Part shown: positions 9,097 through 55,080 of the stretch, one piece after another | Position numbering within the stretch: position 1 is the first letter of the stretch | Layout of the letters: every line of letters starts with the position of its first letter | From: a virus | Lineage: Duplodnaviria; Caudoviricetes | Virus record (IMG/VR): IMGVR_UViG_3300036761_000980 | Coordinates: 1-55,879 of that record | Direction: 5' to 3' (one strand) | DNA: 55,879 nucleotides | The notes under the pieces: generated by a model | Seen by the model: the letters and a program-made list of their open reading frames with translations, nothing else | Told to the model about the DNA's origin: nothing | Database searches by the model: none | Translations under genes and position numbers: made by a program

Positions 9097-10128
9097 TTAA
9101 TGTTTATTTCTTTTAACATACCTATTAGTGTAACTGCAAAGAGGTTGTAAATTGGTATGATGATTTAAATTAATAACATCTTCAATTGTTATAGCGGATG
9201 AAATAGGAATTATATGATCTAAATCCCACCCATAATTAATTTCGCCATTATATTTACCATGATTTTCCCAAGTCATCCAATCTTCAAATTGTGATTCAAT
9301 ATGATTTTTAAATTCTTCAAAGGAGCATCCTAATATTTCAACTGTTTTATTTGGCTTCTTAAAACCATTTTGTCTAAAACATATAGCAATACTACTTCTA
9401 ACGCAACTAGATAATTTGAATATAGGATCTTTTTTAATTCTTTCCCTTCTTTTTTCATTTAAAGTTTTTTTATTAGATTTTCGATATTCTTTTTTTTGTT
9501 CTTTTATAGTTTCTTTATGTTTTTCTTGATAAATTTTTATAATGTCTTTATTTTTTCCATAATATTCTTTTTTATATATTTTCTGTTTTTCTTTTATTTT
9601 TTCTTTATTAGCTTCACGATATTTTCTTTGGGCTTCTTTTATTTCTTCTTTATTTTCAATATAATGTTTTTTTCTAAGTTCATCGATTCTTTCTTTATTC
9701 TTTTTATCATATAATTTGCGGCGTTCTATTTTATGCTCTTTTCTTTTTTTGTTTCTTTTAATTTTTTCTTCTTCAATTATTTGGGCGTTTTTTTCTATAT
9801 ATTCTTTTCGTTTTTCTCTATTCTTTTCTCTGGTTTTTTTATTATACTCTTCTTTATATTTTTCATGAGTTTTTTTACAATATATACTAACTTTTTCTTT
9901 ATTATTTCTATTCCATTCCGTCTTTTTTTCTTTTATTGATTCTTTATTTTTTTCGTAATATTCTTTTCTTAATTCTTTATTTTCTTCACGATATTTTTTT
10001 GTTTGATTTTTTATTTTTTCTTTATTTTTTTCGTGATATTCTTTCTGATATTTTTTAGTATGTTCTTTTCTTTGTATTTTTTCTTCATCTGTTAATGTAT
10101 TATATTCCTTTTTTTCTTGTGACATCAT
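9097..10128 (-). CDS. Free-standing HNH endonuclease with long Lys/Glu/Tyr helical repeat N-terminus
   Basis: C-terminal MTWENHG...WDLDHIIP...HHTNLQPL...N motif; lies against the local gene orientation. Confidence 0.85.
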   Translation of the reverse strand: MMSQEKKEYNTLTDEEKIQRKEHTKKYQKEYHEKNKEKIKNQTKKYREENKELRKEYYEKNKESIKEKKTEWNRNNKEKVSIYCKKTHEKYKEEYNKKTREKNREKRKEYIEKNAQIIEEEKIKRNKKRKEHKIERRKLYDKKNKERIDELRKKHYIENKEEIKEAQRKYREANKEKIKEKQKIYKKEYYGKNKDIIKIYQEKHKETIKEQKKEYRKSNKKTLNEKRRERIKKDPIFKLSSCVRSSIAICFRQNGFKKPNKTVEILGCSFEEFKNHIESQFEDWMTWENHGKYNGEINYGWDLDHIIPISSAITIEDVINLNHHTNLQPLCSYTNRYVKRNKH

Positions 10129-10280
10129 AATTCTTTATTTTTAAAATAATCGATTATTAATCTTTCAATGAAAGCCGATTTGTTGTTCGTTTCTTCGTCT
10201 ACTTTCTTTATCAGTTCTCTTGAGATAGTGATTCCCAATTTTCCTTTTTTGTCTTCTGTTTTTAATTTTGGTCTTCCCAT
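10125..10280 (-). CDS. Small ribbon-helix-helix-like protein (51 aa, not in ORF track)
   Basis: Manual translation MGRPKLKTEDKKGKLGITISRELIKKVDEETNNKSAFIERLIIDYFKNKEL; alternating beta strand then two helices with NKS..I; ATGA overlap with the HNH gene. Confidence 0.8.
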   Translation of the reverse strand: MGRPKLKTEDKKGKLGITISRELIKKVDEETNNKSAFIERLIIDYFKNKEL

Positions 10281-10400
10281 AATATGTTTTATTTAATAAT
10301 AAATATCACGAAAATTTAAAAAATCCGATATAAATCCGATTTTTTACAATTATTTTATGTATATTTGATTTGTCATTTGATTAATTATAATTTTGTTTTT

Positions 10401-10436
10401 AAAAGAGCGGGAAGTTGGTGTCTTCCCGCTTTTTTT
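10401..10436 (+). terminator. Intrinsic terminator
   Basis: AGCGGGAAG-ttggtgt-CTTCCCGCT stem followed by a T tract; A-rich upstream so possibly bidirectional. Confidence 0.8.
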
Positions 10437-10468
10437 ATCGTATATTTTTTTTTCTCATTTCTTTTTCA

Positions 10469-10476
10469 TATATTTG
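10469..10476 (+). promoter_or_regulatory. Bacteroidota-type -7 element (TAnnTTTG) upstream of primase
   Basis: TATATTTG 7 nt before the ATG at 10484. Confidence 0.55.
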
Positions 10477-10483
10477 TGCCATT

Positions 10484-11425
10484 ATGATCGAATCCATGGT
10501 AGAATATGAACCGATAATTGATATACTTGAAGATATTTTCGGGAATTTTAAGAGTCATAACGAATCCGCAGGTCAACTAAGCGTAGATTGTCCTGTGTGT
10601 TCTTATGAAATAAAAGGTCTTGATAAAGGAGACGGTAAAGGAAATCTCGAAATAAATTACCATCAAGGGATATATCACTGCTGGTCATGTGGAGAAACCC
10701 ACGACACGCATGGAAGATTACATTGGTTAATAAAAAAATACGGATCACGCCAACAGCTCAAGAAATTCGATTTATTAATGCCTGAAGAACCAGGTGAAGT
10801 ACAAAAGAAAATATATGAGAGAGTAAGATTACCAAAAGAAAATATTTTATTTGAAACAGCAAGTGCAGGAATAAAATTAACCCATCATTATAAAAAGGCA
10901 TACAATTATCTCAAACAACGAAATGTAACTGATGAGATGATTAAAAGATATAGGATCGGTTTTTGTTATCAAGGTAAATACGCTAATAGAATCATTATTC
11001 CATCATATGATGCGGATGAAATTTTAAATTATTTCGTTGCCAGATCATACTTACCGAATTCTTATAGGAAATATGATAATCCTAAAGCAGAAAAACAAAT
11101 AATAATTTTTAATGAATATCTCATCAATTGGAGCGAGCCAATATACCTGGTGGAAGGGCCCTTCGATAGTATATTTGTTCCTAATTCAATCCCAATGTTA
11201 GGTAAAAAGTTAAGTGATTTGTTATTTGACAGATTATATGAAAGGGCGAAGAAAATTATTATTGTTCTCGATGGGGACGCCCATGAAGACGCAAAAAAAC
11301 TATATTATAGATTAGATGGAGGGAGATTGTTTAATAAAATTTGGATAACTAAACTTCCAGTAGATAAAGACATAGCCGACCTCTGCGGGGATTTAACAGA
11401 ATATCCGCCATATCAATTTAATTAA
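10484..11425 (+). CDS. DNA primase (Zn finger + TOPRIM)
   Basis: CPVC...HCWSC zinc finger, RIIIP, KY.NP, LVEG.FD and LDGD motifs. The track start at 10415 lies inside the terminator, so ATG 10484 (or 10496) is preferred. Confidence 0.9.
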   Translation: MIESMVEYEPIIDILEDIFGNFKSHNESAGQLSVDCPVCSYEIKGLDKGDGKGNLEINYHQGIYHCWSCGETHDTHGRLHWLIKKYGSRQQLKKFDLLMPEEPGEVQKKIYERVRLPKENILFETASAGIKLTHHYKKAYNYLKQRNVTDEMIKRYRIGFCYQGKYANRIIIPSYDADEILNYFVARSYLPNSYRKYDNPKAEKQIIIFNEYLINWSEPIYLVEGPFDSIFVPNSIPMLGKKLSDLLFDRLYERAKKIIIVLDGDAHEDAKKLYYRLDGGRLFNKIWITKLPVDKDIADLCGDLTEYPPYQFN

Positions 11426-11527
11426 TTATTATGACAATGAAAAACTACAAAGAATTAATGAACGAAAGATATGATTTATATTTTTCTCTAAGATTTCGTC
11501 CCGAACAAAGAAATTAATTATATAACA

Positions 11528-11710
11528 ATGGAAACAGCAAAAGAATTAGCTTTTAAAGCGTGGAGAGACGCAACAGAAGGTAAAATACCAACCAAGGAGC
11601 ATTTTGAAAACTGGTGGTCTCAATGGGTTTATGTTAAAGATCATAAAGATAGTTTAGAACCGAAGCATAATGTTTATGTTGATGGCCATCGATATATAAA
11701 ATTAGATTAA
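11528..11710 (+). CDS. Hypothetical protein
   Basis: 60-aa ORF with ATG and A-rich leader. Confidence 0.6.
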   Translation: METAKELAFKAWRDATEGKIPTKEHFENWWSQWVYVKDHKDSLEPKHNVYVDGHRYIKLD

Positions 11711-11721
11711 TAAAATATAAA

Positions 11722-11880
11722 ATGGAAACGAACTTAAAATTTAGAGTGTATTATGATGACAGTATTGATAATGTGATTATCGATATTGCAAAAAGATTAG
11801 AACAATTTGGATTAAGAATAAAATGGATTCAAGCCGAAAATGACGGCTTTGATGACTACGAGATAGAAAAAATAGAATAA
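11722..11880 (+). CDS. Hypothetical protein (52 aa, not in ORF track)
   Basis: Manual translation METNLKFRVYYDDSIDNVIIDIAKRLEQFGLRIKWIQAENDGFDDYEIEKIE. Confidence 0.6.
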   Translation: METNLKFRVYYDDSIDNVIIDIAKRLEQFGLRIKWIQAENDGFDDYEIEKIE

Positions 11881-11901
11881 AAGTAGTAAAATTACTACTT
11901 T
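11880..11901. promoter_or_regulatory. Inverted repeat, candidate operator upstream of RHH-HNH cassette 2
   Basis: AAAGTAGTAA-aa-TTACTACTTT, perfect 10-bp arms, 14 nt upstream of ATATTTAT. Confidence 0.55.
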
Positions 11902-11928
11902 AAAGAAAAAGATAGATATTTATATAAT

Positions 11929-12090
11929 ATGGGAAGAATTAAGATTGATGATAGAAAAAAGAAACGGAAAATTTCGGTTTCAATAGATCCTGAAATTATT
12001 GTTTTGTTAAAAGAAAAATCTATTAACACATCTTCTCTAATAAATAAACTATTAAAGAAGTATATTGAAAATGGAAACAAAAATTTGTAA
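11929..12090 (+). CDS. Small CcdA-like ribbon-helix-helix protein (53 aa, not in ORF track)
   Basis: MGRIKIDDRKKKRKISVSIDPEIIVLLKEKSINTSSLINKLLKKYIENGNKNL; resembles the CcdA N-terminal pattern; overlaps the HNH start. Confidence 0.82.
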   Translation: MGRIKIDDRKKKRKISVSIDPEIIVLLKEKSINTSSLINKLLKKYIENGNKNL

Positions 12091-12949
12091 TAAATGTGGA
12101 AACAAAAAAGAAATTATAGAGTTTAAGAAAGATACGAGAAATAATGACGGATATGGTAGAATTTGTAAAAAGTGTCATAATATTGAAAGTAAATTGTACA
12201 GAGAAAAAAATCGTAAAGAAATTTTAGAAAAACAAAAAGAACATTATCATAAAAATATTGAAAAATCAAGAGAAAAATCAAGGTTTTATTATCAAAAAAA
12301 TCCCGAAACTAAAAAGAAATATGTTGACAAAAATAGAAGCATAATAAATAAACAAGTATCAAAATGGAAAAAAGAAAATTTAGAAAAAGTTTCAGAATAT
12401 TCAAAAAAATCTTATAGAAAAAATATTGAACACAAGAAAGAGTATATTAATAAGAATCGTCAGGAAATAAATAAAAGAAATACGAGGTGGAGAAAAAATA
12501 ATAAAGAAAAGATACAAAAATTAGGAAAAAAATATCGTGAAGAACATAAAGAATATATAAAAAATTATAATCTACAAAATAAAGAAAAAATTAACGAACA
12601 AAAGCGAATAAAACGAAATAAAAGATTAATAAATGATCCTCTTTATAAATTGACAAGAAATATCAGATGTCGAATTTATATGTTTTTTAAAAAAAGGAAT
12701 ATTACAAAAAGAAATAAAACGTTTGAAATTGTAGGATGTACGCCACAAGAATTACGAAATCATATAGAAAATCAATTTACCGAAGGAATGAACTGGAATA
12801 ATTATGGGGTCTATGGCTGGCATGTGGATCATAGAATTCCGTTAGATGCAGGAAAAAATGAAGAAGAAATTTATAAATTATGTCATCATAAAAATTTACA
12901 GCCTTTATGGGCAAACGAGAACTTAAAAAAGTCAAATAAAATATTATAA
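12071..12949 (+). CDS. Free-standing HNH endonuclease with N-terminal Zn ribbon and helical repeats
   Basis: CNKC...CKKC; C-terminal MNWNNYG..WHVDHRIP...CHHKNLQPLWA.EN..K; paralogous to 9097..10128. ATG 12071 preferred over TTG 12065. Confidence 0.85.
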   Translation: METKICNKCGNKKEIIEFKKDTRNNDGYGRICKKCHNIESKLYREKNRKEILEKQKEHYHKNIEKSREKSRFYYQKNPETKKKYVDKNRSIINKQVSKWKKENLEKVSEYSKKSYRKNIEHKKEYINKNRQEINKRNTRWRKNNKEKIQKLGKKYREEHKEYIKNYNLQNKEKINEQKRIKRNKRLINDPLYKLTRNIRCRIYMFFKKRNITKRNKTFEIVGCTPQELRNHIENQFTEGMNWNNYGVYGWHVDHRIPLDAGKNEEEIYKLCHHKNLQPLWANENLKKSNKIL

Positions 12950-12950
12950 A

Positions 12951-13805
12951 ATGGAATTAAAAGAAATATCGAAAGAAATCAAAACGATTTTAGAAGAAAA
13001 CCGAAGACAACATCGGATAAGCTTCGTAGAAGCCAAACATATTTACTATATGATGGATTCGGAGGGCAAAATGAGAAGTGGATTTCCTTCCGTATCTAAA
13101 GTAATTAAGAATTTTTTCAAGCCATTCGATGCTCAAGGAATATCGATGAAAATGGCCAAAGGCGATCCGGAAGTACAGAAACAATTATTAGCAGAGTGGG
13201 CTCAGTCTGGAAAGGATTCCGTTAATCTTGGTAGTAGGGTTCACTATGAGTTAGAAAAATATATAATTGATCAATATGGTAACTATAAAGAAGTTAGACA
13301 GCCCGAATTCGTTATCACCGAAGAACAGAGAATAAAAAGCGATAAGATGATTCAAGCTGGAAAAGATTTTATTAAATTGATGCATGATAGAGGGGGTGTT
13401 CTTCTTGATACAGAAGCCACACTAGGAAATCCAGAAGAAGGATTCGTTGGGTCCCCTGATAATATATGGTTAATGATGAATAAAGATCAGTCGGATTTTG
13501 GGTTTGTGATAACCGATCATAAGAGTGGACAGCCAAAAAACTTTGAAGTATTTCCTTATACAGGTAAACTTTATAGCCCTTTCGAACAATTCCACGATAA
13601 CACATTGGGGCACTATTATTTACAAATACCATTATATGGCAGACTACTAATTAAGATGTTGAAAGGTTCAAAATATGAGGATAAGAAATTTCTTGGAGGA
13701 GTAATTGCTTTAATGAAAGAAGACGCCACCTTTGCTGAGTATAAGGTGCCGCAACCAATCACATCAACAATATTAACAATGGATTTAAAACCTTTTTTAA
13801 AATAA
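12951..13805 (+). CDS. PD-(D/E)XK exonuclease (RecB/Cas4-like, no Fe-S cysteines)
   Basis: PSVS, GS.VH..LE, E...G.PD...ITDHKS, Y.LQ..LY motifs. Confidence 0.8.
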   Translation: MELKEISKEIKTILEENRRQHRISFVEAKHIYYMMDSEGKMRSGFPSVSKVIKNFFKPFDAQGISMKMAKGDPEVQKQLLAEWAQSGKDSVNLGSRVHYELEKYIIDQYGNYKEVRQPEFVITEEQRIKSDKMIQAGKDFIKLMHDRGGVLLDTEATLGNPEEGFVGSPDNIWLMMNKDQSDFGFVITDHKSGQPKNFEVFPYTGKLYSPFEQFHDNTLGHYYLQIPLYGRLLIKMLKGSKYEDKKFLGGVIALMKEDATFAEYKVPQPITSTILTMDLKPFLK

Positions 13806-13808
13806 AAT

Positions 13809-14630
13809 ATGATACGAAAACTAGTCCATATTTCCGATATCCACATCCATACAACTCAGTATCATGATCTATATAGAAAGCAATTCGAATTACTTTTAGA
13901 TCAACTGAATGATGAGTTTTATGGTGGGGGTGATAATGAGGATTTACACGCCTTCGACTTTAGAATTGTAATTACAGGTGATATCTTTCATCAGAAGATC
14001 AACATCTCCAATGAACAGCTTATGTTGGCAAGTTGGTTTATTGATCGATTAACTGATATAGGCCGAGTTGTTATCATTCCTGGTAACCATGATTTCTTGG
14101 AAAATAATATGGAACGATTGGATAGTATAACGCCAGTCGTGGAATTATTGAATAAGCCTGGTGAAGTACATTATTATAAAGATAGTGGAGTGTATCAGGA
14201 TGAAAACATAAATTGGGTTGTTTATTCATTATATCAACATAATGTGAGACCTGAATTCAAAAAGGAAGATGGGTTTTATGTTGGATTATTTCACGGGCCA
14301 ATTCAGGGGATGTCAACCGATTTGGGATTTACATTTGATGATGCATATGACAGAATGAATTTTGTAGATCTCAATCTTTTACTAGCGGGAGATATACATA
14401 AACGCCAAACTTTTAAATTACCTAATGGTGGTGATGCAGTTATGATAGGTTCATTTTTACAAAATAATTTTGGAGAGGATGTTAAACATCACGGATACGG
14501 GATCTTCGATATGGAAACCAAAAAATACACATTCCATGATTTACCAAATGATCAACCATTTTTACATTATAGAATAAATGACATTAAAGACATTGAAACC
14601 GAAAGCGAACAACTCGTTAATCTTGGATGA
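13809..14630 (+). CDS. Mre11/SbcD/T4 gp47-like metallophosphoesterase nuclease subunit
   Basis: DIH, GDIFH, GNHD, FHG and GDIH motifs. Confidence 0.9.
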   Translation: MIRKLVHISDIHIHTTQYHDLYRKQFELLLDQLNDEFYGGGDNEDLHAFDFRIVITGDIFHQKINISNEQLMLASWFIDRLTDIGRVVIIPGNHDFLENNMERLDSITPVVELLNKPGEVHYYKDSGVYQDENINWVVYSLYQHNVRPEFKKEDGFYVGLFHGPIQGMSTDLGFTFDDAYDRMNFVDLNLLLAGDIHKRQTFKLPNGGDAVMIGSFLQNNFGEDVKHHGYGIFDMETKKYTFHDLPNDQPFLHYRINDIKDIETESEQLVNLG

Positions 14631-14946
14631 TGAGTTTCTTCAATATTGTGAATTAAATAATATTGAGGATATTCAGAAGTTGGCGAAAGAAACTTTTAAA
14701 AAGGGATTTGATTTACTGAAGTACGGAGATATGCCAGTAAATAGATTAACGCCTTCAGATAAGATTGAGAAAAAGCCCGCAAAATCTGAGTATATTGAGA
14801 AAGAAGATGTTGTTATTAAGGAAACAAAATCTGATCCTATTGTTTTTTCGCATCCAAGTTCAATATTACCAATGGAGGAGATTAAAAAAGAAATAAAACA
14901 GAAAATTGATAAGATAGTGGAAAAAAGTAACCTTTATGATGAGTAA
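14578..14946 (+). CDS. Hypothetical protein
   Basis: 122-aa ORF overlapping the gp47-like gene; start uncertain. Confidence 0.6.
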   Translation: MTLKTLKPKANNSLILDDEFLQYCELNNIEDIQKLAKETFKKGFDLLKYGDMPVNRLTPSDKIEKKPAKSEYIEKEDVVIKETKSDPIVFSHPSSILPMEEIKKEIKQKIDKIVEKSNLYDE

Positions 14947-15006
14947 AGTGGAAAATAATTTCTTTTTCTGAATTTTTTTACTTATTATTGGAAAATAATC
15001 TTCCAT

Positions 15007-15249
15007 ATGGACGAATTAGAAAAACTTAAAGAGGAAAACGAAGATCTGAAAACAAAGTTAACAGATTTATTATTCGAAATGAACTATAATAAACAAACTG
15101 AGCTTATTGAATTTCTCAGGGAGATATATGATAGTGTCATAATGGAAATGGAAGAAATAGATATATCATCTAGGGATGAGATCCTTTTTAGTTTGAAGAA
15201 AAATATTGAAGAATTTGCTAAAAATAATAAAATCAATATAAATGGATAA
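15007..15249 (+). CDS. Hypothetical acidic coiled-coil protein
   Basis: 80-aa ORF in an operon-like array. Confidence 0.6.
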   Translation: MDELEKLKEENEDLKTKLTDLLFEMNYNKQTELIEFLREIYDSVIMEMEEIDISSRDEILFSLKKNIEEFAKNNKINING

Positions 15250-15550
15250 ATTAATTTTATGGATGTTGATGGCATATGGAATGTCAACAATTATTGTTTA
15301 CGGACATATATTCGATAGACCTCGTGATTGGGTGATTAGTAAATCATCTTTTTGGGGGTCATTTTTTACATGTATGTTATGTATTCCAGTATGGTGTGGA
15401 TTTTTCTTATCATTTGCGTTGGGTGGGCTCACCAATGCTTATTTTGACACTGGCAACTTTACATTCTTCTTTGATGGGATGTTTACCGCTGGGTCAGTTT
15501 GGGCCATAAACGCTTTCGTCGAGTTCTTCGAGGAAAGTAGAATTAAATAA
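15242..15550 (+). CDS. Small membrane protein, DUF1360-like
   Basis: Three hydrophobic segments; IF..PR..and C..C...W pattern. Confidence 0.55.
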   Translation: MDKLILWMLMAYGMSTIIVYGHIFDRPRDWVISKSSFWGSFFTCMLCIPVWCGFFLSFALGGLTNAYFDTGNFTFFFDGMFTAGSVWAINAFVEFFEESRIK

Positions 15551-15556
15551 TTAAAA

Positions 15557-16282
15557 ATGAATTTATTTGAAGATTGGAAGTACGAATACAGAGATTTGCC
15601 TAATGAAAGTTTTGATGATTATGTGATCAAAAAAAAGGTTGTAGAAATTGCTCCACAGTTGTTGGGACTTAATTTAAAAATAAATGAAAATCATAACGGA
15701 AAGGGAATAGATTTAATATGTGTTGATAATCCCGAAATTGGTGTGGAAGTTGAGCGTGGAGGATGGTTTGGTGATTTTTGGAAAGATTTGTATTATAGTA
15801 CCGAAGTTATGAAATGGGGATTTTCGACACTTAATATGCCAGACCGAAAATTAAGATATTGGATGGAACGATATCTATGGAGAAAACAAATGATAGAAAA
15901 TCCTGGATTCAGAAATACAATTTTCATAAGATCGAGCTGGGAATTATATCAAATGAATGTTGTACGGCCAGAAACAGTCCTTAATCCTGACAAAATTTTT
16001 CGAAAAAGAGAAAAAGTAAAAAATAATACAAAAATAGAAGGATGGGTATCATTTAAACATGAGGATGTTGAGACATTTAATTTATATAACGATTTATACA
16101 TTTTAGAATCTGAAGAAAATGGTGAATATCCTGCGTTATCAGAAGAGCGAAGACGAGAGTTAGAAATCGAAAAAAGTGAAGTAGATGAATTAGTGCAAGC
16201 TGAGAAGCGTAAAAGAGCGACAGAAAGATTAAAAGAATTACATAAACAAAAAAATAAAGATGAAGATGAAAGTAAAAATTAA
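15557..16282 (+). CDS. Hypothetical protein, possible PD-(D/E)XK-fold nuclease
   Basis: GIDLIC...GVEVE pattern; charged C-terminal helix. Confidence 0.45.
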   Translation: MNLFEDWKYEYRDLPNESFDDYVIKKKVVEIAPQLLGLNLKINENHNGKGIDLICVDNPEIGVEVERGGWFGDFWKDLYYSTEVMKWGFSTLNMPDRKLRYWMERYLWRKQMIENPGFRNTIFIRSSWELYQMNVVRPETVLNPDKIFRKREKVKNNTKIEGWVSFKHEDVETFNLYNDLYILESEENGEYPALSEERRRELEIEKSEVDELVQAEKRKRATERLKELHKQKNKDEDESKN

Positions 16283-16523
16283 CGGGAAGATTTTCACTGC
16301 CAAGCAGGTGGAAATCAATAATATCAAAAAATTGAGAATAAAAAGGGATTTAGATGACTTTGATATTTTATTTTTCAAAGAATGGATGATGATGAAAACA
16401 GATTATAAAGAAGATATTCCGTTCATATCTAAACTATCACGAGGAAAACTAATAGACTGCTTTCCATGTGATCTTGGCGAAAATTATGTTCTATTAGTTC
16501 ACAATGATATTAAAGAAATATAA
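16260..16523 (+). CDS. Hypothetical protein
   Basis: 87-aa ORF overlapping the previous gene. Confidence 0.55.
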   Translation: MKMKVKINGKIFTAKQVEINNIKKLRIKRDLDDFDILFFKEWMMMKTDYKEDIPFISKLSRGKLIDCFPCDLGENYVLLVHNDIKEI

Positions 16524-16525
16524 AA

Positions 16526-18868: not shown

Positions 18869-18895
18869 TTCTTTAGAAAAACGAAATTTTTGTAT

Positions 18896-18903
18896 TATAT
18901 TTG
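18896..18903 (+). promoter_or_regulatory. Bacteroidota-type -7 element upstream of the sigma factor
   Basis: TATATTTG in the intergenic gap. Confidence 0.55.
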
Positions 18904-18929
18904 TATAAATTAAATTTAAATATATATCT

Positions 18930-20692: not shown

Positions 20693-20695
20693 ATT

Positions 20696-22386: not shown

Positions 22387-22415
22387 TCGACCACAGCCTC
22401 CCAGAGATAAACGAA

Positions 22416-25139: not shown

Positions 25140-25155
25140 TTGAATATTTATTGAT

Positions 25156-26439: not shown

Positions 26440-26478
26440 CTCTTTTTTTTAAGTCTTTTTATCCGTATATTTAATAAT

Positions 26479-26934: not shown

Positions 26935-26963
26935 TTCGTTATATTAGATTAAAATTATAAATT

Positions 26964-27912: not shown

Positions 27913-28120
27913 TCAATTAGCTATAATAGCGGATTTACTTGAGAATATAAATTTAGAGTCCGAATCTAAGAGTGTTGTTCTTATACTTAGTAATGATGAT
28001 TTTGAAAAATTATTTAAGAAGATTATCAAAAAAGCAAAAACGCAATCAGATATGAATGAAACCACATTCTCACTAAAGATAGGAGATATAGATTTTATTT
28101 TTAATAAGAGTAATGTCTAA
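27887..28120 (+). CDS. Hypothetical protein
   Basis: ATG start (MEKRGEIF...) preferred over the track TTG start at 27875. Confidence 0.55.
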   Translation: MEKRGEIFNQLAIIADLLENINLESESKSVVLILSNDDFEKLFKKIIKKAKTQSDMNETTFSLKIGDIDFIFNKSNV

Positions 28121-28760
28121 ATAATTCAGTTCTTTTATATCCCTTAGATTCTAATAATGTATAGAGGTTACTTCTTTGATATGTTGTAATATCTTTAACA
28201 AAGATAAAATTTCCTTTTCCTCTTTTATTTATATCTTCGCGCACAATTTCAAATAGTCGATCAGTATCAGCAATATTTTTATTCCCAAATAATCTGATGT
28301 CATTTTCAACCTGTAAGAAAAGTTTATTATTTAATGTAAATATTTGAGCGATATCTTCTACTTTAAGAATAATTTCCATCATTTCATGATATCTAATTCT
28401 TTTTTTTGAATCAAAATCATATATTTTTTCTTCATTCCAATATGGAATTATTTCTTTAATTCTAAATTTATCATTTATGGCTGGAGTTTCTATGGATATT
28501 AATTCGGCTTTTATATTTCTTCCCAATTCATCTTTAATATATGTGGGTTTCGACCATTTATTATTCGGAAATATTAATCCCAGTTCAAAAACAAGTTCTC
28601 GTTTTCTTTTCCCTCCTTGTAATTTAACAAATGGCGGTCTCTGTTGAGTTTTAAATTCATGCCAATAATTATAAACGGTATTTTTCTTCTGGCATTTATA
28701 TAAAATTCTTAATTTTTTCTTGTTACAAAAAAGAATAATAAAATATTTTCCACCTATCAT
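28101..28760 (-). CDS. Hypothetical protein
   Basis: 219-aa ORF. Confidence 0.7.
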   Translation of the reverse strand: MIGGKYFIILFCNKKKLRILYKCQKKNTVYNYWHEFKTQQRPPFVKLQGGKRKRELVFELGLIFPNNKWSKPTYIKDELGRNIKAELISIETPAINDKFRIKEIIPYWNEEKIYDFDSKKRIRYHEMMEIILKVEDIAQIFTLNNKLFLQVENDIRLFGNKNIADTDRLFEIVREDINKRGKGNFIFVKDITTYQRSNLYTLLESKGYKRTELFRHYSY

Positions 28761-28921
28761 TTAAATATATGTATTATATTTATTACAAATGTATAAAGTC
28801 CATATATACCCAAGAGAAACCAAATGAGTATCACCCAAGTAATTCCTTTATCTAATAAATTAAATTCTTTCTTGGATTCTTGTTGAGTAAGCGTTTTCTT
28901 TTTACAATTTTTACATGCCAT
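28757..28921 (-). CDS. Small single-TM protein with N-terminal CxxC (54 aa, not in ORF track)
   Basis: MACKNCKKKTLTQQESKKEFNLLDKGITWVILIWFLLGIYGLYTFVINIIHIFK; ATGA overlap with the next gene. Confidence 0.65.
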   Translation of the reverse strand: MACKNCKKKTLTQQESKKEFNLLDKGITWVILIWFLLGIYGLYTFVINIIHIFK

Positions 28922-28943
28922 ATGTGTAATATACGATATTAAT

Positions 28944-28974: not shown

Positions 28975-28990
28975 AATAAATAATAAAATT

Positions 28991-29368: not shown

Positions 29369-29375
29369 TTATCAA

Positions 29376-30218: not shown

Positions 30219-30236
30219 TCATCTATTTATATTAAA

Positions 30237-39676: not shown

Positions 39677-39677
39677 A

Positions 39678-42449: not shown

Positions 42450-42533
42450 TAGTATTAACTTATTCTGTAATTTGTAAAATCATAATTGATAATTAATTCA
42501 TTTACTATATTTATATATTAGTTATGTTATTAT

Positions 42534-45506: not shown

Positions 45507-45548
45507 TAACCATTTCTTTTTATAATAATTTTTTCGTATATTTACGAT

Positions 45549-49501: not shown

Positions 49502-50160
49502 GTACACTGGATATAATAGCAAATTCATATGGAACAGATAAATCTTCCTATATGCACAATTATTGTGTTAAATATGAAAAATATTTACCATTTAATAGAT
49601 ATGATAATTTAAAAATATTAGAAATTGGAGTATTCCGAGGAGAATCATTAAGAACATGGAAAGATTATTTTTATCGTTCACAAATTATCGGTATTGACAT
49701 ATTACCCGAATGTAAGAACTACAAAGAAGATAGAATTAATATTGAAATTGGATCACAAATAGATGGTAATTTTTTAACTGAAGTTTCAAAAAAACACGGG
49801 CCATTTGATATGATATTAGATGATGGATCACATATGAATTCACATGTAATATACTCATTTGAACATTTATTTCCATCAATTACAACTGGCGGAGTTTATA
49901 TTATTGAAGATTGTACCACATCATATTGGAGTGATTTTGAAGGAGGATATTTGAAAGAAGGAACATCAATGGAATATTTTAAAAAATTAACCGATGATAT
50001 AAATTTTAGAGGATTACAATATGATGTAAACGGAAAGTTTCATCGGTACAGAAAAGAATTGGATCTTATTCCACTTTCACAAGAGCAACAACCATCCTGT
50101 AGAGTAGACATAGAATCAATAATTTTTTTAAACGGAATAATCATAATAACAAAACGATAA
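49498..50160 (+). CDS. Class I SAM-dependent (sugar) O-methyltransferase, MycE/TylE-like
   Basis: YGTDK...H.Y...Y, ILEIGV..GESL..W..YF, GIDI, DMILDDGSH, GGVYIIED. ATG 49498 gives an ATGA overlap. Confidence 0.85.
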   Translation: MSTLDIIANSYGTDKSSYMHNYCVKYEKYLPFNRYDNLKILEIGVFRGESLRTWKDYFYRSQIIGIDILPECKNYKEDRINIEIGSQIDGNFLTEVSKKHGPFDMILDDGSHMNSHVIYSFEHLFPSITTGGVYIIEDCTTSYWSDFEGGYLKEGTSMEYFKKLTDDINFRGLQYDVNGKFHRYRKELDLIPLSQEQQPSCRVDIESIIFLNGIIIITKR

Positions 50161-52310
50161 TGTCACAATTCAACGAAGATATTTTTGTAATCGATTCTTG
50201 GCCAAATAATGAGTCAAGAGAAAATGAGTTAATCACCTTAATAGAGAGATTAAGAATATATGATATACCTATTTTATTAGCTGGCCACTACCCAATTAAA
50301 CCTGAAATACAGAAAATGGTAGATTATTGCCTTTATGATAGAAACAATCCATTGTTAATTACTGATGAATTTGCGGATTTTGGCGTTAATAGTGTCAGGT
50401 GGTCAGATACGAAGGATTTTCGTATTGAAAATCTTCGTGAATATCATCATGATTATGCGGTATGGCAAACAATGAAAAATGCTTTTAATTTTTCTAAATA
50501 TCTTGGTAAAAAATATATTCATTTTATAGACGATGATAATTTACCGCATCCTATACAGTATCGCCAGACATTTTTAGAAAGAATTAGAGATTTCGATGTG
50601 GTTATTACTGAGTACGATGAAGGTTCGTCATTAATAACAAATGAAAAACCTTATTGTACAACATATATCTTTTCAATTAGAACAGATATCGCGGTGAAGG
50701 TATTTGACACAATAAAAACTAAAGATGAATTCTTTCGTAATAAGCCAGATAGATGGCAATTAGAGAAAAATTTTTTAAATTCGGCTCGAAAAATTACTAA
50801 TAGTATCTATGTTTGTAAATACATTCCCAATAATAATGAATTAAACAGACACGCAGTATGGGAAAGGCCAGGAATGGACAGAAATAGAATGGATATTCAA
50901 CTTTACTTAGCAGTTAACGATATTGATGATTTATATTTACATACTATTTCAGGCGGCGATTACTTAATAGAAGTGTCCTATGGAAATTATAAAAAATTTC
51001 ATAATGTAACGAAGAATAGTATGCTTGTTTATGAGTTAGGTAAATATCAGCAAGGGAATACAATATTTGTATATTATCAGGGCACGGAAATATATAATAA
51101 TCATTTAGATTATGATATTAATAAATTTCGAGGATTAAATAAAATAATAAGAAAAACGGAAACGCCAAAAGAAATGAATAACACACCCCCAGAAATAAAA
51201 ATAAATTTTCTTGACGGAGCATTTGTCGAAATTAAAGAACAGATGAACAGAATATATCGTGTTCAGTTTATTAATAAAAGAAATAATCAAATTGATTTCG
51301 AATTAGATTTAAAAAGTAATCATTGGGCCAGATGTAGTAAAAAATATTATATCAATTGGTTGATAAGAATACAAGGTATCGATAATGATTTTTATTCTGA
51401 GTATGAAATAAATTTAACAAATAAAAGAGTACTAATTAGTTTTGAATCCAAGTCAATAGGTGATACATTAGCATGGATTCCATATGTTGAAAAATTTAGA
51501 GTTGATCATAAATGTATTGTTATTTGTTCAACATTTCATAATAATTTATTTAAAAATCAATATCCTGAAATTGAATTTGTCGAACCAGGAACAACTGTGC
51601 ATAATGTATATGGACTCTATAGATTAGGAGTCTTTAAAAAAACTGGGTATAAACCAGATCCAAACTCACCTAATGAAGTTGATTATGAAAAACATTTAAC
51701 TGATCCAAAGAAAGAACCATTAACTAAAGTGGCATCAGATATATTGGGTTTAGATTATGTGGAAATCAAACCTAAATTACCTGTATTTACACAAGGAAAG
51801 AAAAAAATAGTTTCTATAGGCACCATCTCGACGGCGCAATGCAAATTCTGGAATAATCCCAATGGATGGCAAGAAGTTGTTAATTTTCTTATTGTAAATG
51901 GATATGAAGTTAAATTACTTTCTAGCGAGCCAGATGGATATATGGGCAATACGAATCCTAAAAATGTAACAAAAATACAAAATAAAAAACTTGAAGAAAT
52001 TTTAAAAATAATCCAAGAATCTGAATTGTTTATTGGTATTAGTAGCGGATTATCATGGTTGGCTTGGGGAACGGGAACTTCCACAATAATTATTTCAGGA
52101 TTTACTGATGATTATGTTGAACCACAAGAAGGTATAATAAGGATAATAAATAAAGAAGTTTGTCATGGATGCTGGGGAAAATATAATTTTGATCCCAGCG
52201 ATTGGCGATGGTGTCCAGTTCATAAAGGAACTGATAGGGAATTTGAATGTACTAAAGAAATTTCATCTAAATCTGTAATTTATGAGATAAAATTAATTCT
52301 AAAGTTATGA
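50160..52310 (+). CDS. TibC/Aah-like autotransporter O-heptosyltransferase domain fused to an N-terminal GT-like domain
   Basis: RVLISFES.SIGDTLAWIPYVEKF, STAQCKFWNNPNGW..V, FIGISSGLSWLAW, ISGFT, and CHGCW...FD..DW.WCP.H....FEC Fe-finger cysteines as in TibC. Confidence 0.85.
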   Translation: MSQFNEDIFVIDSWPNNESRENELITLIERLRIYDIPILLAGHYPIKPEIQKMVDYCLYDRNNPLLITDEFADFGVNSVRWSDTKDFRIENLREYHHDYAVWQTMKNAFNFSKYLGKKYIHFIDDDNLPHPIQYRQTFLERIRDFDVVITEYDEGSSLITNEKPYCTTYIFSIRTDIAVKVFDTIKTKDEFFRNKPDRWQLEKNFLNSARKITNSIYVCKYIPNNNELNRHAVWERPGMDRNRMDIQLYLAVNDIDDLYLHTISGGDYLIEVSYGNYKKFHNVTKNSMLVYELGKYQQGNTIFVYYQGTEIYNNHLDYDINKFRGLNKIIRKTETPKEMNNTPPEIKINFLDGAFVEIKEQMNRIYRVQFINKRNNQIDFELDLKSNHWARCSKKYYINWLIRIQGIDNDFYSEYEINLTNKRVLISFESKSIGDTLAWIPYVEKFRVDHKCIVICSTFHNNLFKNQYPEIEFVEPGTTVHNVYGLYRLGVFKKTGYKPDPNSPNEVDYEKHLTDPKKEPLTKVASDILGLDYVEIKPKLPVFTQGKKKIVSIGTISTAQCKFWNNPNGWQEVVNFLIVNGYEVKLLSSEPDGYMGNTNPKNVTKIQNKKLEEILKIIQESELFIGISSGLSWLAWGTGTSTIIISGFTDDYVEPQEGIIRIINKEVCHGCWGKYNFDPSDWRWCPVHKGTDREFECTKEISSKSVIYEIKLILKL

Positions 52311-52350
52311 TTTTTATAAAATTCTATATATTTATATATAAAAATATAAT

Positions 52351-52500
52351 ATGAAAGTTAAATCAATTTTAATATCAGAAAAAACACATGAAACATTAAA
52401 AAAATTTTGTAAGGAAAATTCGTTAATTTTAGGTAATTGGGTTGATAAGGTTATTTCAGAAGTAATAAAAGAAAAAGATGAAAAGAAAGATAGAAAATGA
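52351..52500 (+). CDS. Small ribbon-helix-helix-like protein (49 aa, not in ORF track)
   Basis: MKVKSILISEKTHETLKKFCKENSLILGNWVDKVISEVIKEKDEKKDRK; ATGA overlap with the downstream endonuclease. Confidence 0.78.
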   Translation: MKVKSILISEKTHETLKKFCKENSLILGNWVDKVISEVIKEKDEKKDRK

Positions 52501-53291
52501 ACGAATATATAAGATTATGTCCTTCTTGCGGAAAGGAAATAAAATATAAAAATAAAAGTCATTGTATTAGAGCAGATATAAAAAATTCAATATGTCAGGA
52601 ATGTCAACAAAAAAAATATCAATCAATTGAAAAATTTATAAGGAATTGTCCTATTTGTGATAAAGAAATAAAATATAAGGATAACATATCTTATGAACGA
52701 AGTATTAAAAAAGATCGGCCATGTTTATCTTGTTATTCTAAAATAGGAGAATATGAAAATAAAACAAATATAAGAAATTGTCCCATATGTAATAAAAAAA
52801 TAATCTATTCTAACAAATATAAATGTAATTACGCTAATTTAAAAAAATCGGAATGTCGTTCTTGTTCAAAATCAGGAGAAAAAGCTCCACTATATGGAAG
52901 AATAGGTGAAAAACACCATAACTTTGGTATAAAATTGACGGATGAACAAAAACAAAAAATGAGATTATCAAAAATGGCACATTTAAAAAAATGTTATGGG
53001 CAATTATCTCCGTTTTATAATCCTCTTGCTTGTCAATATTTTAATAAATTAATGGAAGAAACAAACACGCATATACAACATGCCGAAAACGGTGGTGAAT
53101 TTTATATTCCCGAATTAGGATATTGGGTGGATGGCTATGATGAAATTAATAATGCAATATATGAATTTGATGAAAGACATCATTTCGACGCTTTTGGTAA
53201 TTTAAAAGATAAAGACATACGCCGTCAAAATGAAATCGTGAAATTATTAAAATGTCAATTTCATAGAATAAAATTTAATATGGTATCATAA
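52497..53291 (+). CDS. Homing-endonuclease-like protein: tandem Zn ribbons + NUMOD3-like + PD-(D/E)XK/Vsr-like nuclease
   Basis: Three R.CP.C.K.I.Y...C..C repeats; G.KLTDEQKQKMRLS; GYWVDGYD...IYEFDERHH...D..RQ.EI. Confidence 0.75.
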   Translation: MNEYIRLCPSCGKEIKYKNKSHCIRADIKNSICQECQQKKYQSIEKFIRNCPICDKEIKYKDNISYERSIKKDRPCLSCYSKIGEYENKTNIRNCPICNKKIIYSNKYKCNYANLKKSECRSCSKSGEKAPLYGRIGEKHHNFGIKLTDEQKQKMRLSKMAHLKKCYGQLSPFYNPLACQYFNKLMEETNTHIQHAENGGEFYIPELGYWVDGYDEINNAIYEFDERHHFDAFGNLKDKDIRRQNEIVKLLKCQFHRIKFNMVS

Positions 53292-53303
53292 ATTAAGAAC
53301 TGT

Positions 53304-53486
53304 TTAGGGAACGGTTATCTCGTTTAATTTATTTACAATATTCTCAACCTCTTGTGCTGGCACAACTGTTGACGGCAATGGCGCTGGCTTTGATTTTATT
53401 TCACCATTTTCCACATATGTGATTCTTGCTGGTTGTTGTGCTGGTGATACTATTGTTTTTTTACCTTTACATCCGCATGGACTCAT
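53304..53486 (-). CDS. Small hypothetical protein with N-terminal CGC
   Basis: 60-aa ORF; ATATTTAT upstream on the minus strand (53501-53508). Confidence 0.6.
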   Translation of the reverse strand: MSPCGCKGKKTIVSPAQQPARITYVENGEIKSKPAPLPSTVVPAQEVENIVNKLNEITVP

Positions 53487-53508
53487 ATTAATCTTTTTTA
53501 ATAAATAT

Positions 53509-53540
53509 TTTGTTTTCTAATTTATTTTAGTTTATCTTTG
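53509..53540 (+). promoter_or_regulatory. Bacteroidota primary-sigma promoter
   Basis: TTTG 53509-12, 20-nt spacer, TATCTTTG 53533-40. Confidence 0.7.
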
Positions 53541-53578
53541 TACCAATATTAACAATATTAAACCTAAAAGTAAAGTAA

Positions 53579-54223
53579 ATGGACAAAGATTTTATTCCTG
53601 TAAAAAGTGTTTATAATAGCAACTATGAGGTCATCAAAAACATAATGACTTTATATAAGATTAATCGGTTTGATCTTGATTGTACCTATTCAAGAGGATT
53701 GTTTTGGAAAAATTTGCCTGAGCCAAGAATAAAAACGGATCTAGTCCCAATGACCGATGACACAATACAAGCAGATTCCGAACATCTACCATTTGAAGAT
53801 GGTAGTATGAAAACTATAATGTACGATCCTCCGTTCATAATATCTGGAAAATTATATAAAGAAAACAAAGAAGGTAGTTCAGTAATTGCTAAGAGGTTTG
53901 AAGGATATACAACATATGAAAAATTAACAACTAATTATTATAATACATTACAAGAACTTTATCGGATTTGTGAAAAAGATGGGTTAGTTGTAATGAAGAC
54001 AATGGACACAGTGAGTGGGGGCAAGAATCATTTTACACATGTAATGATTATGAATATGGCGATGAAAATCGGATTTTATCCAAGAGATCTTTTCGTTTTA
54101 GTAGCAAAAATGAGGATCAATTCCTTTGGTGGAAAATGGAATAAACAAGAACACGCCAGAAAACACAACAGTTTTTTCTGGATTTTAGAAAAAACAACAC
54201 CTAAAGTGAAATATTTGTTTTAA
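53579..54223 (+). CDS. Putative amino (N6A/N4C) DNA methyltransferase
   Basis: LDCTYSRG.FW SAM-binding-like motif, D..HLPF, catalytic DPPF, EL.RI...G. Confidence 0.75.
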   Translation: MDKDFIPVKSVYNSNYEVIKNIMTLYKINRFDLDCTYSRGLFWKNLPEPRIKTDLVPMTDDTIQADSEHLPFEDGSMKTIMYDPPFIISGKLYKENKEGSSVIAKRFEGYTTYEKLTTNYYNTLQELYRICEKDGLVVMKTMDTVSGGKNHFTHVMIMNMAMKIGFYPRDLFVLVAKMRINSFGGKWNKQEHARKHNSFFWILEKTTPKVKYLF

Positions 54224-54260
54224 AAATCATATTTATATAAAAAGTAAGATATTTATTAAT

Positions 54261-54422
54261 ATGGGAAGGGAAAAAATAAATCCTCGTAATAAAAAAGTCA
54301 GGGCGACAATTACTATTGATCCTAAAATCGAAAAAATGATTAAGGAATTACATATTAATTTGTCATCTCTGGCAAATGATTTACTATTGAAATATTTTGA
54401 CGAAAAAAAGACGATATACTAA
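54261..54422 (+). CDS. Small CcdA-like ribbon-helix-helix protein (53 aa, not in ORF track)
   Basis: MGREKINPRNKKVRATITIDPKIEKMIKELHINLSSLANDLLLKYFDEKKTIY; clear paralogue of 11929..12090; overlaps the GIY-YIG start. Confidence 0.82.
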   Translation: MGREKINPRNKKVRATITIDPKIEKMIKELHINLSSLANDLLLKYFDEKKTIY

Positions 54423-55080
54423 TCCAATATCCTGTATATATAAAATAACATATGACAAATACATTTATATTGGTAGTACGGCAATATTTTCTAAAAGAAA
54501 ATTTGAACATTTATGGATGTTAAAAAATAATATTCATACTAATCCAATACTTCAAAACATATATAACAAACATGGTAGAACTAGCATAGAAATTTCTATA
54601 GTTGAAGAAGTGCCTATTGAGAATTTAATTGAAAGTGAACAAAGATACATTGATCAATATAAAACAAGTACAGATTTGAGATTAATAAACATTTTATTGG
54701 TGGCGGGAAGTTCTTTAGGTTATAAGCAAAGTCAAGAAACCTGTGATAAAAAAAGAAAGTCTATGTTAGGTAAAAACAAAGGAGTCAAAAGAAGTGAGGA
54801 ATATTGTTTACAACAATCTATTCGTCAAAAAAATAGAGTAATAACTCAAGAATGGAAAGATAAAATTTCTAATACATTAAAAGGAAGGGCAAGTCCTAAC
54901 AAACCTAAAAAATTTATTATTTATAATAATATCACATATTCATATAAAGAGTTTGCAGAAATTGTTAATTGTAATTTAAGTAATCTATATTTAACGACGC
55001 AAAAATATACTGAGAAGAAATATGGATATAAATTTGTTGAAATTAAGCAGGATTCTGAGGTGTTCCAAGGTACATATTAA
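54397..55080 (+). CDS. GIY-YIG homing endonuclease with NUMOD3-like repeats
   Basis: CIYKI...YIGS, R..EH...L....H.N..LQ..YNKHG, E...I, N....AGSSLG.K.S.ET; TTG start; 3' end overlaps the convergent gene. Confidence 0.88.
   Translation: MTKKRRYTNPISCIYKITYDKYIYIGSTAIFSKRKFEHLWMLKNNIHTNPILQNIYNKHGRTSIEISIVEEVPIENLIESEQRYIDQYKTSTDLRLINILLVAGSSLGYKQSQETCDKKRKSMLGKNKGVKRSEEYCLQQSIRQKNRVITQEWKDKISNTLKGRASPNKPKKFIIYNNITYSYKEFAEIVNCNLSNLYLTTQKYTEKKYGYKFVEIKQDSEVFQGTY

Follow-up and report, generated by a model that had tools for sequence, protein, structure and literature searches.

Why should the gene of a phage homing endonuclease begin inside the gene of a DNA-binding protein of only about 50 residues? 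In textbooks, free-standing homing endonucleases are solitary genes. The stretch of DNA analysed here, referred to as the window, is a single contig of 55,879 bp with a G+C content of 33% (IMG/VR virus record IMGVR_UViG_3300036761_000980; Duplodnaviria, Caudoviricetes). It contains four places at which a small open reading frame (ORF), missed by the first-stage ORF track, runs into the start of an endonuclease-like gene. A preliminary description of the window had proposed that these pairs are copies of one two-gene element, in which a dedicated ribbon-helix-helix (RHH) protein represses, neutralises or helps to target a swappable nuclease. Our comparative analyses revealed that nucleases of five unrelated folds follow RHH genes, that the nuclease is exchanged behind a constant RHH gene, and that syntenic genomes differ in having or lacking a whole cassette. 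The comparative evidence is solid, whereas for the mechanism, which we read from sequence and by analogy, we see about an even chance that the RHH protein is a promoter-proximal autoregulator, of the Arc/CopG type, of the translationally coupled nuclease.

All four small ORFs, named S1 to S4, lie where the preliminary description had placed them, and a nuclease-like gene begins before each of them ends:

S1, 10125-10280, minus strand: 51-residue RHH protein of the MGRPKL...KKGKLGITIS...NNKS subfamily
HNH endonuclease, 9097-10128, minus strand, behind S1: 343 residues, K-rich repeats, C-terminal DH...N...N
S2, 11929-12090, plus strand: 53-residue RHH protein
HNH endonuclease, 12065-12949, plus strand: N-terminal zinc ribbon, METKIC..., in the +1 frame relative to S2; phrog_1035 endonuclease VII (2.3e-15)
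S3, 52351-52500, plus strand: 49-residue RHH-like protein of a separate family
Zinc-ribbon/NUMOD3 protein, 52497-53291, plus strand, behind S3: 264 residues, with a suspected C-terminal Vsr/DUF559-like PD-(D/E)XK domain
S4, 54261-54422, plus strand: 53-residue RHH protein
GIY-YIG homing endonuclease with NUMOD3, 54397-55080, plus strand, behind S4: TTG start; phrog_314 (8.9e-20)

The overlap is ATGA at the junctions of S1 with its HNH gene and of S3 with the nuclease-like gene, 20-26 nt between S2 and its HNH gene, which starts at TTG 12065 or ATG 12071, and 26 nt between S4 and the GIY-YIG gene, counted from the TTG at 54397. A run of seven A residues (54403-54409) lies inside this last overlap, and losing one A in the transcript would fuse the two frames. 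A -1 frameshift at the same run was considered and discarded, since it cannot reach the nuclease frame (+1) and the nuclease has its own start.

S1, S2 and S4, which all begin MGR as had been noted, are homologous by pairwise comparison. S2 and S4 share 51% identity over 47 residues (E 2.5e-12) although one precedes an HNH gene and the other a GIY-YIG gene, and S1 is 35% identical to S2 (E 1.8e-7) and 34% identical to S4 (E 3e-6). By profile, no fourth copy was found among 471 six-frame window ORFs of at least 25 residues (next best E 0.36), and S3 shows no likeness to the three that is detectable by sequence (hhalign probability 11%). The view that the four ORFs are of one kind thus holds for S1, S2 and S4 as homologues and has to be given up for S3, which is analogous only. 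Similarly, the claim that all free-standing homing endonucleases here (four of four) carry such an ORF agrees with a Pfam scan that covered 24 of the 52 window ORFs of at least 60 residues and found no further homing endonuclease, but it includes a partner of S3 whose nuclease fold is only suspected.

Several lines of evidence identify the small proteins as RHH proteins. S2 matches the Pfam family CcdA at 23.2 bits (cut-off 22.4), over profile positions 1-37 of 71 only, and the PHROG Arc-like repressor at 3.9e-5; S4 matches CcdA at E 9.3e-4 and S1 matches RHH_1 at E 0.044. Among 73 family members, 44 match CcdA at E ≤0.01, in its N-terminal half only, and 20 match BrnA. In the AlphaFold2 model of S2, calculated from a 73-row alignment (predicted local distance difference test score 88), residues 12-20 are extended and residues 21-30 and 34-47 form helices, which is the strand-helix-helix layout of an RHH domain (about 45 residues, an N-terminal beta-strand and two helices). 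A VIA-align comparison of this model with 48,161 PDB representative chains returned 102 chains with Z ≥2, and the top 49 or so are almost all RHH proteins, aligned over residues ~10-53 with Z between 3.1 and 5.0: the DNA-binding domain of CopA_SO (5.0), the PutA RHH domain (4.8), SvtR (4.8), omega (4.7), Arc (4.2) and ParG (4.1). AmrZ, NikR, RelB, TraM, NikA and ArtA are also in the match list. These Z values are low in absolute terms because S2 has only 53 residues, and the argument lies in the uniformity of the list. A Foldseek search of the PDB with the same model gave no match at E ≤0.001.

The RHH identity that the preliminary description had assigned to all four proteins is therefore supported for S2 by Pfam and by structure prediction, which was run on S2, and for S1 and S4 as its homologues; for S3 the evidence is weak and indirect. 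The proteins of the S1/S2/S4 family are minimal RHH domains with a basic N-terminal arm and no further domain, and S2 ends 5-8 residues after helix 2 (the helix reaches residue 47, the protein residue 53). At E ≤0.01, a profile retrieved 106 database proteins with lengths of 48-85 residues. Codon position 3 is the most variable, and the median pairwise ratio of nonsynonymous to synonymous substitution rates (dN/dS) comes to 0.19 in 1003 pairs of S2/S4-like genes and to 0.35 in 93 pairs of S1-like ones; the small RHH genes are under purifying selection. On sequence and model together, we regard the S1, S2 and S4 ORFs as real RHH genes. S1-like RHH proteins have 32 close relatives in viral contigs, and a subgroup of them (L020, L029, L035; P0088-P0106) is longer, at 75-81 residues, with a conserved C-terminal extension of about 28 residues (...ITITNN.E.KYDENNN.IG.KTTKII...) that might serve to bind a protein. 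This extended RHH precedes a GIY-YIG gene in each of three loci inspected (L020, L029 and L035; 79-residue forms).

The partner genes carry the catalytic motifs of homing-endonuclease families intact in the GIY-YIG gene and in the HNH pair. In the GIY-YIG protein, Y15, Y24, I25, G26, R34, H38, E81 and N98 are invariant in 15 relatives. The two HNH proteins of the window are paralogues (34% identity, E 7e-41) that both keep DH...N...N, and the one encoded at 9097-10128 clusters with 78 RHH-linked HNH genes. Both HNH genes also have long lysine-rich repeats (KEYYEKNKEKIKE...). In a contig from run X16, a strain about 93% identical to the window, position 12245 is joined to 12885 with 11 nt of microhomology. 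This is a 639-nt internal deletion of the HNH gene that retains the RHH end and resembles the HNH deletion of locus L064 described below. Contigs from four metagenome runs cover the window only in fragments. A joint of 11715 with 13023 in a contig from run X13 was supported by only 20 letters on one side, too weak, and was not used. For the partner of S3, the NUMOD3 match (E 9.5e-4) falls below the cut-off, a comparison with PDB sequences gave no match, and the nearest Atlas clusters, found with a language model, carry NUMOD3 and a Vsr-like DUF559 domain (scores 0.93-0.97); a PD-(D/E)XK nuclease is suspected on this basis.

Is the pairing a property of this contig or of the family? IMG/VR viral contigs were searched by RHH similarity alone, blind to the downstream gene, and yielded 5 + 32 + 80 loci, the 80-locus set being the best 80 of 207. 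Of these 117 loci, 116 contain a plus-strand ORF that matches an RHH profile (117 such ORFs in all), with start and length of the small RHH conserved across the 117 loci, and the partner was defined as the gene starting between -80 and +200 nt from the RHH stop. A nuclease lies directly downstream in 108 of the 117 RHH loci, or 108 of the 115 in which the contig did not end; many of these loci are near-copies (L003 and L038 are one contig), and the counts are not of independent events. The predicted position of RHH homologues directly upstream of endonucleases is thus borne out by the profile and the tabulation of downstream genes. The partners are HNH (78), GIY-YIG (19), DUF7487-type PD-(D/E)XK (5), TnsA_N-like/NUMOD (4) and LAGLIDADG (2) proteins, which confirms that unrelated folds, including two PD-(D/E)XK types, share one kind of small gene. 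The contact is tight, in that 100 of the 108 nuclease genes overlap the RHH stop and the other 8 start within 10 nt of it.

With identical proteins removed, 72 of 77 distinct partners are nucleases. By Pfam and PHROGs, 50 of the 77 match phrog_1035, 13-14 GIY-YIG, 3 DUF7487 and 3 TnsA-like_N; LAGLIDADG_3 occurs in 4, three of which are inteins. DNA-binding modules are frequent among them: NUMOD3 in 14, NUMOD1 in 3, HTH_psq in 4 and an I-HmuI NUMOD-like module in 4, in addition to zinc ribbons. The exceptions to the pairing fall into few kinds. Two 'FEN' neighbours arise from an HNH gene that has lost 653 internal bp, the locus being otherwise 99% identical (L064 versus L060), a Dcm gene directly follows the RHH in 3 loci, and minus-strand RHH homologues in L004, L005 and L037 precede non-nuclease genes. 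We also observed that DUF7487 cassettes (L004, L005, L030, L031 and L037) have a second, divergent RHH paralogue that shares the intergenic region. In L004 and L005 this second RHH is followed by a 256-residue protein with no assigned family, so that two RHH genes stand back to back at one control region.

The dependence is not mutual. A converse search from HNH and GIY-YIG proteins gave 45 loci, of which 42 were kept and three (L120, L153 and L158) dropped for having no ORF at the match. An RHH gene lies upstream in only 5 of the 42, one search pattern (MKMETKIC) having favoured RHH-linked genes. In L046-L049, an RHH-less HNH gene stands next to an RHH-linked one. Because 37 of the 42 relatives are without an RHH gene, the RHH is an optional accessory of these nucleases.

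Comparison of syntenic sites revealed how the two genes travel. The S1 site lies between a RuvC-like gene and a primase gene, with the RHH gene divergent from the primase; the window has an HNH gene there, and six relatives (L011, L012, L014, L024, L029 and L035) have a GIY-YIG gene behind an RHH that is 56-72% identical. At the S4 site the order is methylase, RHH, nuclease and a convergent DUF192 gene. One relative (L039) has an orthologous GIY-YIG gene with 67% identity, and in L003/L038 a LAGLIDADG gene follows an RHH 68% identical to S4. The proposed swapping of nucleases behind a constant RHH therefore occurs at two window sites, and in one other lineage discussed below. The RHH tree (68 sequences, short and poorly resolved) is consistent with this, since both of its well-supported clades hold HNH- and GIY-YIG-linked members. 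The partner label changes 16 times on it, between a minimum of 7 and a shuffled mean of 25.3. Forcing the 15 GIY-YIG-linked RHHs, a group chosen after the tree was seen, into one clade costs 97.75 log-likelihood units (approximately unbiased test, p 3.8e-11).

Whole cassettes are also sporadically present or absent in intergenic positions between syntenic genomes. The S2-HNH unit is missing, with primase and exonuclease genes adjacent, in L002, L024, L042/L043 and L051, and the RuvC-like and primase genes are adjacent in L016-L018. Conversely, L001/L002 have a cassette after a phosphoesterase gene where the window has none. Empty sites in related phages, anticipated in the preliminary description, are thus found, as in L024.

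The separate family of S3 provides a second view of such pairings. S3 matches the PHROG Arc-like profile at 0.008, its family profile matches SvtR/56B (2kel) at E 6.7e-4, and its 17 remote homologues give scattered Omega_Repress, ParG, RHH_7 and 56B_RHH matches. A single-sequence scan of viral contigs with S3 found no relative. In metagenome contigs, relatives with 78% (L163/L164) and 69% (L165) identity overlap zinc-ribbon proteins like that of the window, and one with 51% (L166) precedes a short protein with a GIY-YIG-looking motif. In a group with 47% identity, 17 of 25 loci continue with small ORFs that, judged by eye as were all genes downstream of S3 relatives, are not nuclease-like. Because most S3-like homologues precede non-nuclease-like ORFs, RHH families such as that of S3 are not nuclease-specific. 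A further locus (L131, 1319-1501) has a 60-residue ORF of unrelated, RHH-looking sequence (…SSITMTPELWAKLDKIK…SAWIADKI…) that overlaps an HNH start and would be a third independent pairing of a small ORF with HNH. Together, the S3 family and L131 suggest, on sequence, a repeated, convergent recruitment of RHH regulators to nucleases.

What, then, could the RHH protein act on? The DNA in front of each small gene has the following features, whose roles are putative:

Leader of cassette 1, 10281-10345, minus strand: promoter-like; ATATTTAT at 10306-10299, 18 nt before ATG
Two direct ATCGGATTT repeats, 10340-10332 and 10329-10321, minus strand: candidate operator in the leader of cassette 1
Leader of cassette 2, 11882-11928, plus strand: promoter-like; ATATTTAT at 11916-11923, 5 nt before ATG
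Palindrome AGTAGTAA-AA-TTACTACT followed by TTT, 11882-11899, plus strand: possible operator or terminator hairpin
Leader of cassette 3, 52328-52350, plus strand: ATATTTAT at 52328-52335, 15 nt before ATG
Leader of cassette 4, 54229-54260, plus strand: ATATTTAT at 54229-54236 and 54249-54256, the second 4 nt before ATG

As had been described, AGATATTTAT(A)TAATATGGGAAG is present upstream of both S2 and S4. Among unique leaders of relatives, TATTTAT occurs in 52 of 52 S2/S4-like leaders (in 48 at a distance of 4-6 nt from the ATG) and in 20 of 21 S1-like leaders, mostly 15-16 nt before ATG; CTTTT lies 13-14 nt upstream of TATTTAT in 43 of the 52 S2/S4-like ones. The short gap between TATTTAT and ATG suggests that S2/S4-type transcripts may be leaderless or nearly so. 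The repeat words are specific to the RHH subfamily. ATCNGA is found in 8 of 20 S1-like leaders (at least two copies in 5 of 20), against 10.5% (1.4%) of control windows and 1 of 52 S2/S4-like leaders, whereas the 52 S2/S4-like leaders contain AGTANTA in 22 cases (5.4% of controls) and TACTTTT in 41 (4.2% of controls). We consider the leader repeats of the window candidate operators. A generic terminator scan gave no signal above shuffles.

These observations lead us to propose the following organisation. The cassette is a compact, mobile unit of three parts. A promoter-like leader, which would leave the transcript hardly any 5' untranslated region, comes first; it is followed by a gene of about 50 codons for an Arc/CopG-type RHH protein and by a homing-endonuclease ORF whose start codon lies within the last RHH codons, so that its translation would be coupled to that of the RHH gene. 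The RHH dimer would bind the repeats in its own leader and autoregulate the two-gene transcript, thereby keeping the nuclease low, or timing it, whichever nuclease is plugged in. The RHH protein most plausibly acts on its own leader because the leader is the constant part of the cassette and five unrelated nuclease folds vary, and a regulator fits better than a cofactor or an antidote because 37 of the 42 HNH relatives do without it.

Does such an arrangement resemble a known system? In restriction-modification systems, C proteins such as C.PvuII and C.AhdI are encoded by a small DNA-binding gene upstream of the endonuclease gene, often overlapping it, and the autoregulated C protein sets the timing and level of the endonuclease; some of the C transcripts are leaderless. 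The gene order and the proposed role as autoregulator are alike. However, C proteins have a helix-turn-helix (HTH) fold and act beside a protecting methylase, while S2 is an RHH protein by model and its family precedes homing endonucleases of five folds in lytic-phage-like genomes. The Aca repressors of acr operons are small, constant markers beside interchangeable phage cargo and damp a strong promoter. The likeness is that of a constant small regulator beside variable partners; in contrast to the genes described here, the aca gene lies downstream of its cargo, Aca proteins are mostly of the HTH type, and the cargo consists of inhibitors and not of nucleases.

The RHH repressors Arc/Mnt of P22, CopG, omega and SvtR are similar in fold, size, basic N-terminal arm and promoter-proximal position, although they regulate lysogeny, copy number or partition genes; the family profile matches CopG only marginally (E 0.19). 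According to PDB entry 2bnw, omega recognises short repeats whether they are direct or inverted, and the candidate leader repeats would resemble these. Closer in context is the Arc protein of IS605 elements, which, according to the available part of a recent preprint, binds and represses the promoter of its own element and has homologues, in an IS605-related clade, that also adjoin homing endonuclease genes (Moon, Zedaveinyte, Wiegand, Sternberg, bioRxiv 10.64898/2026.09.24.754181). Both are RHH proteins of about 50 residues in a selfish element with a homing-type nuclease (TnpB in IS605). Unlike the phage cassette, the elements in that part of the preprint are bacterial insertion sequences with TnpA/TnpB, often in divergent order, and no overlapping operon, fold swapping or phage setting is described there. 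In phage T4, the controls known for free-standing homing endonucleases, as set out in PMC2988022, act through the choice of promoter, through RNA hairpins or through repression of the gene by its own product, as in I-TevI, which autorepresses its own promoter. The resemblance is that a protein bound at an operator over its own promoter holds a phage homing endonuclease down. The difference is that I-TevI is its own repressor, through its DNA-binding domain, whereas here a separate RHH protein is proposed to exert control independent of the nuclease. Our full-text literature search found no description of a phage cassette of RHH and homing endonuclease genes. The view that the system is not a described one is accordingly supported, as far as this search reaches, for the phage cassette and is qualified by the remark of Moon et al., in the part of their text available, on Arc homologues beside homing endonucleases.

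Several observations weigh against an autoregulator dedicated to the nuclease. As the preliminary description had noted, all four ORFs lie behind ATATTTAT. However, the window shows no enrichment of this motif (23 sites, with 18.6 expected; at least 23 in 16 of 100 shuffles), and seven other genes also have TATTTAT in the 25 nt before their start (6392, 19739, 25156, 30237, 31961, 42534 and 53486 on the minus strand). Since the motif is not over-represented and stands at seven ordinary genes, we regard ATATTTAT/TATTTAT as a general start or promoter motif of this phage. The leader enrichment counts given above rest on related, non-independent sequences, the leader repeats, partly read by eye, vary in form from direct to inverted to none found, and some leader palindromes with T runs could, by eye, be terminators of the upstream gene. 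A generic sigma-70 scan did no better than shuffles. In addition, one lineage (L056-L116) keeps the RHH gene and both flanks constant, and the ORF between the RHH gene and the Dcm or FEN gene is HNH, PD-(D/E)XK or absent. DNA alignments put the exchange boundaries of this lineage directly behind the RHH stop, beyond the METK... codons that are shared, and immediately ahead of the following gene. As the RHH stays while the nuclease ORF changes there, it is possibly the phage, and not the nuclease, that the RHH serves.

Two observations adjoin these points. TATTTAT at 6380, 19731, 25145, 30224, 11917 and 54250 stands 1-6 nt before ATG, and some of these genes are structural; the spacing suggests that this phage commonly makes transcripts with no leader or hardly any. 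In a leader palindrome, an apparent compensatory change between L073 and L074 was dropped from consideration, as the symmetry centres differ by eye.

The constant RHH of the L056-L116 lineage leads to the alternative that survives best, namely that the RHH is a resident phage regulator whose 3' flank is a landing pad for homing-endonuclease ORFs, which thereby gain a promoter and a coupled start. The RHH would then drive, for example, downstream replication or modification genes and would not have evolved to control a nuclease. Beyond the behaviour of that lineage, this explanation accounts for the Dcm genes directly behind the RHH in three loci, for the non-nuclease genes behind the RHH homologues of L004, L005 and L037, and for the 17 of 25 S3-like loci that continue, as judged by eye, with non-nuclease-like small ORFs. 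We nevertheless consider it unlikely. A nuclease is present in 108 of the 115 assessable loci, and both 'FEN' cases go back to the HNH gene that has lost 653 bp. Moreover, the three copies in the window occupy three unrelated sites, each with a nuclease, whole units of RHH and nuclease are present or absent at four or more sites between syntenic genomes, and no homologue turned up when 185,579 bacterial and archaeal genomes were scanned twice in a pattern-limited way.

Another possibility would be an accessory role on DNA, in which the RHH occupies the homing site or its vicinity and there helps to target the nuclease or shields the carrier's own site from cleavage. That the RHH stays at the S1 and S4 sites while the nuclease differs among relatives is compatible with such a role, and TraM, NikA and ArtA, which are among the structural matches of S2, are RHH proteins that act as accessory DNA binders of relaxases. 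We judge this quite improbable, given that the nucleases have DNA-binding modules of their own (NUMOD3, NUMOD1, HTH_psq and zinc ribbons), that recruitment would require contacts with unrelated folds, and that relatives work without the RHH.

The third alternative, raised in the preliminary description, is an antitoxin-like protein that binds and inhibits the nuclease and so protects the carrier genome until the nuclease is needed. The best Pfam families are indeed antitoxin RHH domains (CcdA and BrnA), a small gene comes first and overlaps the next as in type II pairs, and the 79-residue forms before GIY-YIG genes in L020, L029 and L035 have the C-terminal extension of about 28 residues described above. 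The CcdA, ParD and BrnA antitoxins likewise have an N-terminal RHH domain and are encoded by the small first gene of a two-gene operon. However, the match to CcdA covers positions 1-37 of 71 only and the protein ends soon after helix 2, so that the C-terminal half that would bind a toxin is missing. The partner is also not a CcdB-, ParE- or BrnT-like toxin, and its fold varies, so one kind of RHH would need to neutralise five unrelated folds. Furthermore, 37 of the 42 HNH relatives live without an RHH, and no fused RHH-nuclease protein was found among 8000 candidates, which is weak evidence. This part of the earlier proposal is very unlikely to hold.

Finally, it is hardly credible that the small ORFs are untranslated chance frames of AT-rich leaders, short and missed by the first-stage ORF track as they are, given the 106 similar proteins at E ≤0.01, the start and length conserved in 117 loci, the median dN/dS values of 0.19 and 0.35 with third positions most variable, and the confident fold prediction.

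Returning to the promoter-proximal autoregulator, a more far-reaching form of this reading joins the promoter, the RHH gene and the opening METK... codons of the nuclease into one socket, a portable unit of selection that would accept any nuclease. We offer this tentatively, as a possibility with the balance against it. A nuclease ORF recombined into the socket would gain a leaderless transcript, coupled translation and a feedback switch at once. Socket and cargo could spread together, by homing of the whole cassette, and apart, by swapping of the cargo. The socket would then be a general expression-control module in large lytic phages, for which at least two RHH families would have been recruited independently, and it might also shield the carrier's own site.

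If the autoregulator reading is true, a separate, travelling regulator would be a new layer in the taming of selfish nucleases within phage genomes, and would account for the way in which unrelated nucleases replace one another at a single site while the neighbouring genes stay undisturbed. The RHH gene of about 50 codons, usually missed by gene callers, would mark mobile nuclease cassettes in metagenomic phage genomes and could flag unrecognised nuclease families, such as DUF7487 and the partner of S3. The pair of promoter and RHH gene could also serve as a compact, autoregulated expression part.

Inteins add a side observation to the swapping of nucleases. In L066, L068 and L079, three loci of one phage lineage, the Dcm gene carries an intein (Hint plus LAGLIDADG), the free-standing nuclease is absent, and the RHH gene is joined to the Dcm start (METKI...). 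In L071, L072 and L115 an HNH or PD-(D/E)XK gene is present and Dcm is intein-free. This pattern may reflect competition or a hand-over between a free-standing and an intein-borne endonuclease.

As for the carrier itself, the window encodes large structural proteins, a primase, a metallophosphoesterase, DNA methylases, a sigma-70-type factor and an amidase, and the phage looks lytic. A blastn search with positions 9000-14000 gave only weak matches to Flavobacterium phages, within the HNH region. Window positions 9138-9371 match LR756502.1, a 642-kb uncultured phage record, with 73.5% identity by blastn, and because of this match the HNH type of the window is also present in very large phages. 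A tblastn search with S2 against 50,697 phage records gave no match. In the scans of the 185,579 bacterial and archaeal genomes, which were pattern-limited and used two alignments, no relative of the RHH family was found among 143 and 600 pattern matches, and as far as these scans reach, the S1/S2/S4 family appears to be confined to phages. Sediment metagenome runs contain DNA near-identical to the window.

One further unit of the window deserves mention. The stretch 28101-28921 on the minus strand is the sole other minus-strand unit within the plus-strand gene block, and it consists of a 54-residue ORF (28757-28921, minus strand) with a CxxC motif and a hydrophobic stretch, which is not RHH, and a gene of 219 codons (28101-28760) that it overlaps by ATGA. 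Neither protein has a Pfam or PHROG match. The pair could be another mobile two-gene insert.

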